A DNA stretch of 11,246 nt from an uncultured Candidatus Bathyarchaeia archaeon (lineage in GTDB: Archaea; Thermoproteota; Bathyarchaeia; Bathyarchaeales; Bathycorpusculaceae): assembly GCA_964450845.1 (NCBI GenBank), contig CAYVGZ010000050.1, positions 1 to 11,246 on the forward strand, given 5' to 3'. A program made the position numbers and the translations under genes. Position 1 is the first letter of the stretch, and every line of letters begins with the position of its first letter. Below, in pieces: positions 2,286 through 4,163 of the stretch. Under the pieces are notes generated by a model. The model was not told where the DNA came from, ran no database searches, and saw only the letters and a list, made by a program, of their open reading frames with translations.

Positions 2286-3257
2286 ATGAGCGATGAGGAA
2301 GAAGGCCAAGACTCCGACCCTATAGTGCAAGCGCAACACGTTGAACCCATAAAAGTCCACCGCTGCCCAGAATGCGGCAGCACAAGACTAATGCGTGATT
2401 ACGAAAACGCCGAAATAGTCTGCATGGACTGCGGAATCGTAGTAGCCGCAAAAATAGCCGACAGGGGACCCGAATGGAGAGCCTTTGACGATGAACAAAG
2501 AGCAAAACGAACAAGGGTTGGTGCTCCCTTAACTTATACAATTCATGATAAAGGCTTATCAACAATGATTGATTGGCATGACCGAGATATTTACGGAAAA
2601 AGTTTATCACCTGGACAGAAGGCACAGGTTTACCGACTCAGAAAATGGCAACGGCGCATAAGAGTTTCAGATGCAACAGAACGCAACCTCGCCTTCGCAT
2701 TATCTGAAATCACAAAAATCGCCAACAACCTAAGTCTTCCCAAAAACATCCTCGAAACAGCGTCAGTAATCTACAGAAAAGCCGTAAAAGAGCGGCTAAT
2801 ACGTGGAAGATCCATTCAAGGCGTAACTGCAGCAGCAATTTACTTAGCTTGCAGAAAATGCGGACTAGCTAGGACATTAGAAGAAATAGCACAAGCATCA
2901 AGCGTAAACAAAAAAGAAGTCGGTCGCAGCTACCGTTTCCTAATCAAAGAACTCGACTACTCCATACCGCCTCTCAAACCAAGCCAGTACATAACAAAGT
3001 TTTCAAACCAACTAACAATGCAAGGAAAAGTCGAAGAAATCGCCCACAAAATTCTAGCCGCAGCAAAGGAACTAAAATTAACCTCCGGTCGCGGCCCAAC
3101 AGGTATTGCGGCTGCCGCAAGTTACATAGCTTCAGTGCTGACTGGCGAAAGAAAAACACAAAGGGAAATAGCTGAAATAGCACAAGTAACCGAAGTCACC
3201 ATTAGAAACCGCTACAAAGAGCTTGTTGAACGGTTAATGTTCCAGATAACCGTTTAA
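2286..3257 (+). CDS. tfb: Transcription initiation factor IIB
   Basis: Zinc ribbon CPECGS...CMDCG, B-reader GPEWRAF, two cyclin folds, C-terminal [26 protein letters not shown]. Confidence 0.99.
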
Positions 3258-3270
3258 CCCCTCTTTTTCT
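3258..3270 (+). terminator. Pyrimidine/T-tract terminator after tfb
   Basis: CCCCTCTTTTTCT directly after the stop; oligo-T termination is typical of archaea. Confidence 0.45.
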
Positions 3271-3302
3271 AAATATCTGGTTCGGGTGCCTCATTAACAG
3301 TT

Positions 3303-3692
3303 CTAAAGTAATTCTTCTTCCTCGCAGCTGGAGTACTCTTCTCCTAAATGTTCCTCTTTCTCGTCTCCCTTCAATGTTGACGACGCGAGTTTGCCCAGTT
3401 CCTGAAGAAATTCATGCGGAAGTTTATCTTTTAACGTCTCAACTTCCTTCTTTAGCTTGTTAACCTCACTTTCTAAACCCTTTGCTTTCTCACTTAATTC
3501 CACAACTTCTTTAAGTTGCCTAACCTCCTCCAAAAGCAAGCCTTTCTCTTTCTCTAATGCCTCAATCTTTTTTTCCAGTTTCGTTTTCATTTCGGTAACC
3601 TGCATGATTTTTCCACTCACTGATTCAATATTTTGCAAGTTCACAATTAATAATTTACTCCAAAAACTATTTGTGCACTCACTACAAAACAC
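3303..3692 (-). CDS. Coiled-coil (leucine zipper) protein with acidic C-terminus, paralogue of the 3735-4163 zipper. Start uncertain (GTG 3692 or ATG 3605).
   Basis: Leu at 39-46-53-60 and 66-73-80-87; shares LESEVN and about 49% identity over 53 columns with the neighbouring protein (hand alignment). Confidence 0.8.
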   Translation of the reverse strand: MFCSECTNSFWSKLLIVNLQNIESVSGKIMQVTEMKTKLEKKIEALEKEKGLLLEEVRQLKEVVELSEKAKGLESEVNKLKKEVETLKDKLPHEFLQELGKLASSTLKGDEKEEHLGEEYSSCEEEELL

Positions 3693-3734
3693 ATTTTAGC
3701 CCCTACGAGGATAATTAACAAAGGGGCTCACAAT

Positions 3735-4163
3735 TTGGTCAAGTGTCCAAAATGCGGGATTGATGTATCCACTCCAGTTAAGACTTGGCCCATGCCTATG
3801 CGAAAGCCATTAAAAAAGGGCGAATCCAAAATTGCAATGGGAATATTTGAATGTCCAAACTGCAAAGCAAGGTTTAGAGCCGCCTTAGAAGTAGAAACCA
3901 AGCTTGAAGAGACAGCAAGTATTAAAAACATGGTTGAAAGAATTAGAGGCATAAAGGGAGAACTCATGCAGACCTTGAAGAATCTTCGAGAAAAAATAAA
4001 GACCTTGGAAACTGAACGGGCAAATTTAATGATTGAAATTGACAACCTAAAGAAAGTTGCAGAATCAAAGGCTAACGCCCTTGAAAGCGAAGTAAACATG
4101 TTGCGGGAAGAAGTAAAATCTCTTAGAGACCTTCTGGGTTATACTGAAGAAGCAGGAAAATAG
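3735..4163 (+). CDS. Cren7-like zinc-ribbon domain fused to a C-terminal leucine zipper
   Basis: N-terminal CPKC...PVKTW...MGIFECPNC..RFR matches my recollection of the Cren7 pattern PEKVW...IGLFKDPETGKYFR. Heptad series I63-I70-L77-L84-L91-L98-L105 then L116-L123-L130. TTG start with AGGGG SD. The CDS is solid; the family call is by eye. Confidence 0.75.
   Translation: MVKCPKCGIDVSTPVKTWPMPMRKPLKKGESKIAMGIFECPNCKARFRAALEVETKLEETASIKNMVERIRGIKGELMQTLKNLREKIKTLETERANLMIEIDNLKKVAESKANALESEVNMLREEVKSLRDLLGYTEEAGK

Follow-up and report, generated by a model that had tools for sequence, protein, structure and literature searches.

Genomic context of the gene pair

The window, by which the whole analysed stretch of 11,246 nucleotides is meant, is contig 50 of an archaeal assembly (a 1.64-Mb, 93%-complete genome), and the names of close homologues place it in the Bathyarchaeia, family Candidatus Bathycorpusculaceae. 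Two genes, referred to below as A and B, lie head to head in it, surrounded by housekeeping genes:

2037-2285, Gar1-like open reading frame
2286-3257, TFB (Pfam TFIIB, 1.5e-47)
3303-3605, minus strand, gene B (100 aa, ATG start), headless paralogue corresponding to A residues about 78-136
3606-3734, divergent spacer of A and B, 129 bp between the start codons
3735-4163, plus strand, gene A, 142 aa with a TTG start, as called from the open reading frame

Further genes of the window encode L7Ae, S28e, L24e, succinyl-CoA synthetase, an Lrp/AsnC regulator, Alba and AspRS. Gene A is located directly 3' of TFB on the same strand, as in 26 of the 28 loci examined, and B is convergent with TFB, the stop codons of the two being 45 bp apart. 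The arrangement Gar1-TFB-A (positions 2286-4163 of the window; loci L009-L036) is kept across the taxonomic order. Two other open reading frames, 3457-3699 on the plus strand (80 aa) and 3728-4099 on the minus strand (123 aa), were rejected as genes; they lie antisense to B and A, are rich in Leu, Ser and Phe, and are shadows of the Glu/Lys-rich (GAA/AAG-rich) coiled-coil coding sequence.

Predicted structure and distribution of gene A

The product of gene A can be divided into two parts:

3735-3896, plus strand, head with a CPKC...CPNC zinc ribbon, residues 1-54, Cren7-like fold in the predicted model
3903-4136, plus strand, coiled coil, residues 57-134, delimited by alignment, heptad assignment and heptad-class conservation

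Two CPxC knuckles (CPKC and CPNC) are found within residues 1-43 and are followed by one long helix. The AlphaFold2 model, built on 36 orthologues (mean pLDDT 86), contains strands at residues 14-19, 32-39 and 46-53 and a single helix of ~80 residues (57-134). In the family alignment C4, C7, C40 and C43 are invariant, W18, G36, F38, F47 and R48 are nearly so, and position 20 is hydrophobic. Some of these residues may correspond to those with which Cren7 binds and kinks double-stranded DNA, namely a Trp, a hydrophobic wedge on the beta3-beta4 sheet and basic residues. When the head was compared with the PDB by Foldseek, ranks 1-9 were all Cren7 (probability 0.98-1.0, 27% identity) at a target-normalised TM of about 0.6; the weak E value of about 0.1 is expected, because the domain has only ~50 residues. 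Cren7 was also the top match in VIA-align, which placed residues 1-54 of the model on Cren7 9-57 with Z 5.0-5.5 and an rmsd of 2.2 A over 49 residues, the runner-up being the zinc ribbon of NrdR (Z 4.6-4.8). Judged from this model, the product of gene A is a zinc-ribbon head of the Cren7 type carried on a coiled coil.

Cren7 is derived from a zinc ribbon, and four-Cys, zinc-bearing forms of it are kept in Bathyarchaeota (Kaur et al. 2018, PMC5906684). The head of A has the same small beta fold as Cren7 (Sso6901; PF11520; PDB 3KXT, 3LWH, 6A2I, 2JTM) at 24-27% identity, with a superposition spanning 49 of about 57 residues, and it keeps the four predicted Cys of the ancestral zinc ribbons (PMC5906684). 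In contrast to Cren7 proper, its sequence match to PF11520 is below the gathering threshold, which is set at 25 bits, and that family was absent among the best 25 Pfam families listed for either A or the isolated head. In the published fusions Cren7 is preceded by a CdvA-like coil or takes the form FtsZ-Cren7 or URI-Cren7 (PMC5906684); A differs from them in that the head is N-terminal and a leucine-zipper-like coil is C-terminal, an order not described in that paper. Scans of A and B against Pfam and NCBIfam gave only sub-threshold coiled-coil and zinc-ribbon noise. Some orthologues of A are assigned to PF27636 in the protein database.

A profile of A run against PDB sequences did not match Cren7, and its best matches, a cytochrome c repeat and vimentin coil 1A (E about 1e-3), were rejected as likeness of composition or of coiled coils. 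The coil (3960-4140 of the window) gives weak, sub-threshold matches to coil 1A of intermediate filaments, with E 1.4e-4 and 22 bits against a cut-off of 40 for Pfam Filament and E 1.3e-3 for vimentin 3s4r in the PDB; this likeness is probably generic. The coil is conserved on every face (surface positions 0.79) and lateral assembly or a conserved partner is possible. It is interrupted by one heptad discontinuity, a stutter, near residues 108-112.

Of 30 orthologues of A, 29 start with TTG, and in genomes lacking B the start is mostly TTG as well; the conservation of such a weak start suggests a translation of A held at a low level. The homologues of A make up 880 clusters, and every named one is from Bathyarchaeia. 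Among 251 genomes sampled from the class, 31 have full-length A, and these belong to four families of the window's own order (genome counts, here and below, refer to samples that include incomplete MAGs). Full-length A is thus a bathyarchaeal protein restricted to one order.

Gene B, a headless paralogue of A

The product of gene B also has two parts:

3420-3602, minus strand, coiled coil, residues 2-62, carrying two extra residues at the heptad break compared with A and C (a further paralogue, described below)
3306-3419, minus strand, residues 63-100, with a break at Pro63, an EFLQEL helix and an acidic tail

An earlier note on this DNA had located both genes correctly, with the residues of B numbered from a GTG at 3692 (129 aa), to which the mechanical open reading frame extends. 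The start is almost certainly the ATG at 3605, since orthologues begin at MQVxEMK and the 29 codons upstream are unconserved; the protein is then 100 aa long and the spacer 129 bp. The same note had counted identities by hand between the coils of the two proteins, and a recount of A84-134 against B10-62 (39-91 in the numbering from the GTG) gives the same 26 identities over 53 columns, the block KAxxLESEVNxL and a single 2-residue indel included. By BLASTP, A and B share 29 of 63 residues (46%, E 9e-11). Its assertion that this goes beyond generic heptad similarity is borne out by a control in which residues were permuted only inside each heptad position class: the real pair has a Smith-Waterman score of 116, the shuffled ones a mean of 47 (sd 7), giving a z of about 9.5, and none of 5000 shuffles reached it, with the same outcome whether one or both sequences were shuffled. 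The coils of A and B are therefore homologous and not merely alike in composition. B was correctly described as headless and acidic at its C-terminus: it contains no zinc ribbon, nor any other Cren7 part, and the tail is present.

B is represented by 137 homologous clusters. Where dS is unsaturated, its median dN/dS is 0.13, compared with 0.11 for A, indicating that B is a real gene under purifying selection. The family has a conserved KIPxEFLQEL motif, with P63 and L67 invariant, and a tail with the consensus EECxxCEEEELL, in which the CxxC is well conserved and C94 nearly invariant; this CxxC could be a metal site shared by two chains. In the window the tail (3306-3347) reads YSSC, the first Cys being replaced by Tyr. 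A single-chain AF2 model of B has one helix (residues 2-85) and a disordered tail (85-100).

The likeness of A and B might be ascribed to generic heptads or low complexity, or B might be a spurious open reading frame, as coiled coils often inflate local similarity and the region holds long shadow frames on opposite strands. The failure of all 5000 heptad-preserving shuffles, a dN/dS of 0.13 over saturated dS, the 137 conserved clusters with their tail motifs, and the conserved promoter box and Shine-Dalgarno sequence described below refute this explanation, which we regard as barely conceivable.

Searches of the ESM Atlas with B returned no informative cluster, the recognition score being below the useful range. 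Against the bZIP families PF00170 and PF07716, B scored 19.3 and 19.1 bits (cut-offs 22.3 and 27.6), with the zipper part alone, and it has no basic DNA-contact region of the bZIP kind.

Spacer and probable promoters

The divergent spacer carries three conserved or semi-conserved elements:

3646-3656, minus strand, box ATTAATAATTT, conservation 80% or higher in 30 loci, located about 45 nt 5' of the ATG of B
3685-3699, plus strand, box CAAAACACATTTTAG, at -40 to -50 from the start of A
3711-3726, plus strand, AT-rich box ATAATTA and then a Shine-Dalgarno-like GGGG run, semi-conserved, just 5' of the TTG of A

By its position, ATTAATAATTT is probably the TATA element of B, and a GGTGA-type Shine-Dalgarno sequence is located between it and the ATG. 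Position and conservation together make CAAAACACATTTTAG a probable BRE/TATA element of A; as it is conserved also in genomes without B, it appears to be A's own core promoter. A similar box, TGCAAAAGTCTTAAGTG, is found upstream of paralogue C, and the box of B differs from the type common to A and C. The element at 3711-3726 would serve as a proximal promoter element and ribosome-binding site of A. In place of a single shared promoter for both genes there are two distinct conserved boxes of the core-promoter type, placed back to back about 40 bp apart. The stretch between ATTAATAATTT and CAAAACACATTTTAG is variable in sequence and length, and no shared operator was detected in the 30-locus alignment of the spacer.

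Distribution and origin of gene B

With B as a query, matches at the level of B were obtained in 37 of 151 genomes of the family, belonging to about 20 genera. The head-to-head arrangement holds throughout, B adjoining A divergently in all 30 loci fetched, with 109-134 bp between the start codons, and in two public MAGs the orthologues of A and B bear consecutive NCBI locus tags. Co-occurrence with a divergent arrangement, a point raised by the earlier note, holds in one direction only: B never occurs without A alongside (30/30 loci), and A occurs without B in most of its range, in the family as in the order. The adjacency may merely follow from a local inverted duplication combined with very stable synteny, given that the TFB-A order is itself kept order-wide and is equally stable. 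The gap between TFB and A is 65-260 bp in loci without B and 445-476 bp in loci with it, so that B with its promoter is an insertion into the TFB-A spacer.

The trees were quick searches on short alignments. On the coil tree, computed from the part of the coil common to the paralogues, the B sequences make up a single clade (SH-aLRT 99) that branches from among A-like sequences on a long stem (0.98 changes per site), and C forms a separate clade (SH-aLRT 98, stem 0.27). On the A tree every genome with B belongs to a single derived clade, which also holds 12 genomes lacking B, a distribution that forces at least two losses. Read from these trees and alignments, B is the product of a single partial inverted duplication of the distal two-thirds of the A coil within one family, which entered the TFB-A spacer and obtained a promoter of its own. 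It went through a burst of change, in which two residues at the heptad break, a Pro-EFLQEL motif and the acidic tail were gained, and then came under purifying selection. B has been lost repeatedly.

The B of one genome (G041, L066) has an in-frame TAA, and the sister of this genome on the A tree, G009, is without B; a second match with an in-frame TAA is at G057:C44:64851-65132. Four genera (g41, g51, g68 and g72) include both genomes with B and genomes without it. B is here a gene in the midst of disappearing.

Coil paralogue C and loss of the head

A third paralogue, C, is encoded away from the A/B pair:

genome G000, contig 106, L002:1465-1710, minus strand, paralogue C, 81 aa, coil only

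C is 66% identical to A residues 72-138 and ends in a basic KKKK/KKKKK tail. It is present in most of the family relatives searched, many of which lack B, is unlinked to B, and co-occurs with B in G000, G001, G002, G008 and G010. In G000 and some relatives it is divergent from Nop5.

The zinc-ribbon head may also be missing at the position of A itself. In two genomes, G007 (L034, about 90 aa) and G018 (L085, about 97 aa), the TFB-adjacent gene has lost its head, and a search of 12 genomes from the genus of G018 found none with full-length A; the head is degenerate in G012 (L035), with one knuckle left. Such genes indicate that a headless coil is not necessarily an inhibitor, and that the coil serves some function for which the head is not needed.

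Possible pairing of B with A

On a simple heptad assignment, the consensus sequences of A and B are identical at 0.67 of a/d, 0.67 of e/g and 0.17 of b/c/f positions, the corresponding values for A and C being 0.80, 0.73 and 0.70. Surface positions are conserved within each of the three families (A 0.79, B 0.70, C 0.79). According to these comparisons B has kept the zipper interface and swapped its outer surface; C, which retains 70% of A's surface positions, mimics the coil of A more closely than B does and is by this measure the closer pure competitor. The a/d cores of A and B are nearly identical, with Leu at all d positions and I-R/K-I/V-A/V-A-V-V-L at a, including a conserved charged Arg/Lys at one a position, and interface positions are invariant in both families. 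As a, d, e and g are kept in B, a mixed A-B coil is sterically plausible.

Heterospecificity was sought by counting g-e' charges in six pairings and none was found: the pairs are all attractive in AA, BB, CC, AB, AC and BC dimers alike, and the AB score minus the mean of AA and BB is 0.0 across 27 genomes. Charge counting therefore does not discriminate between the pairings and, as far as the sequences go, pairing of A with B is permitted and not preferred. The conserved Asn of EVNxL was considered as a register lock at an a position and rejected, since the heptad assignment puts it at b.

A and C share the stutter, and every B has two extra residues exactly there, which turn it into a discontinuity of another kind. 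With this fixed insertion the two segments of B cannot both match the register of A if the chains run parallel, so that A and B are unlikely to form one unbroken parallel coil that keeps its register through both segments.

Possible function of gene B

The evidence fits a headless B that can still engage A-type coils yet does something that A does not. Our preferred reading, offered tentatively from the sequences, the models and the analogy with H-NST, is that B may co-assemble with A and retune its two-headed DNA binding. B would still zip onto A-type coils (A and possibly C), at a minimum along the four C-terminal heptads. With a single DNA-binding head and an added acidic tail, such mixed dimers would lower or retune the two-headed binding or bridging of DNA by A. 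B would then be an accessory and dispensable modulator, comparable to H-NST acting on H-NS. With an ATG and a GGTGA ribosome-binding site, compared with the conserved TTG of A, B could be made in excess over A. Several points weigh against such a modulator: AB pairing is not favoured over AA or BB, the insertion shifts the register, C is the closer mimic of A, the adjacency has an explanation in local origin and stable synteny, and headless genes occur at the position of A itself. Further, the distinct conserved surface and tail of B point to partners of its own, its distribution is patchy (37/151 genomes, two copies with stops), and in a parallel dimer the tail of B and the head of A would be at opposite ends.

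B might instead act as an independent homodimer with a new function, the old zipper serving for self-pairing only, its new surface, EFLQEL helix and acidic CxxC tail binding other partners or metal, and its place beside A might be a relic of the inverted duplication held by stable gene order, perhaps with useful co-regulation. We consider this main rival possible, if somewhat less likely than co-assembly with A. The long stem branch of B followed by conservation is in its favour, as are surface positions of which 17% are common with A and which are yet conserved within B, the 2-residue register change fixed in all B sequences, the conserved tail motifs and a promoter box unlike that of A and C; the TFB-A synteny, moreover, is equally stable with no proven functional link. 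It accords poorly with the fact that B is away from A in none of 30 loci although synonymous sites are saturated, and with the retention of the interface positions, the unusual charged a included, exactly as in A.

The main partner of B might instead be C, the acidic and basic tails making a charge-complementary heterodimer which would affect A only indirectly. C has the same a/d/e/g pattern, its basic tail is opposite in charge to that of B, and the two coexist in the five genomes named above. This partnership is nevertheless very unlikely, given that C is present in many genomes without B, is not linked to it, and shares the stutter of A and with it the same 2-residue mismatch with B.

A broader reading can be envisaged, which we hold to be unlikely: A, B and C might form a combinatorial set of coils whose mixed dimers tune the valency and charge of a Cren7-derived DNA bridger encoded beside TFB. 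B would then be a recent off-switch, possibly sensitive to metal or redox state, and the set, in some Bathyarchaeia, an archaeal counterpart of the partner exchange between eukaryotic bZIP or HLH proteins and Id.

Comparison with known systems

In eukaryotes, Id proteins and CHOP are dominant-negative partners of HLH and bZIP proteins; like them, B shares the dimerisation helix and has no functional DNA-contacting part, but there is no homology, and B is without the heterospecific e/g charge pattern of the classic inhibitory partners. Among archaea, Alba1 and Alba2 of Sulfolobus form mixed dimers that alter DNA packing. As is proposed for A and B, a chromatin protein would pair with its paralogue, but both Alba proteins are full-length DNA binders of another fold and their genes are not a divergent pair.

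The closest parallel in architecture is offered by H-NST, a truncated paralogue of H-NS and its antagonist (Williamson & Free 2005, reviewed in PMC7074111). As described in that review, a coiled-coil oligomerisation domain is joined to a small DNA-binding domain in H-NS, and a short paralogue consists of the oligomerisation part only; B, like H-NST, is accessory and patchily distributed. Compared with that account, the folds and the domain of life are unrelated, and the DNA-binding domain of A is N-terminal and of the Cren7 type. Moreover, H-NST is described there on genomic islands, whereas B is chromosomal and head to head with its parent gene; B adds an acidic CxxC tail and a replaced outer surface.

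Since regulation by truncated paralogues of oligomerisation domains is already established, the finding does not open a new category. If B does join the coil of A, the pair would to our knowledge be the first in archaea in which a headless paralogue tunes a DNA-architectural protein. The evolutionary record is unusually clear, comprising a single origin, a kept interface, a replaced surface and repeated loss.

Head-only paralogues

Genes for the head alone complement those for the coil alone:

genome G000, contig 14, L003:1489-1656, minus strand, head-only paralogue
genome G000, contig 2, L005:1486-1650, minus strand, head-only paralogue

These proteins, of 54-56 aa, are the only ones matched by the Cren7 Pfam model, and below its threshold (15.7 and 16.9 bits, E 0.015 and 0.006); searched against the window's own genome, PF11520 gave a best match of 13.7 bits. 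A phmmer search of the head-only paralogues against the PDB gave nothing significant, with Cren7 at E 0.58. Like B, they start with ATG. Even without a mechanism for B, a modular family emerges, made up of a Cren7 zinc-ribbon head alone, a head with a coil (A), a basic-tailed coil (C) and an acidic-tailed coil (B), and it should be approachable with simple biochemistry. One of the head-only paralogues is without a Cys of the second knuckle, and in relatives the head-only genes are often found as tandem pairs about 200 bp apart.
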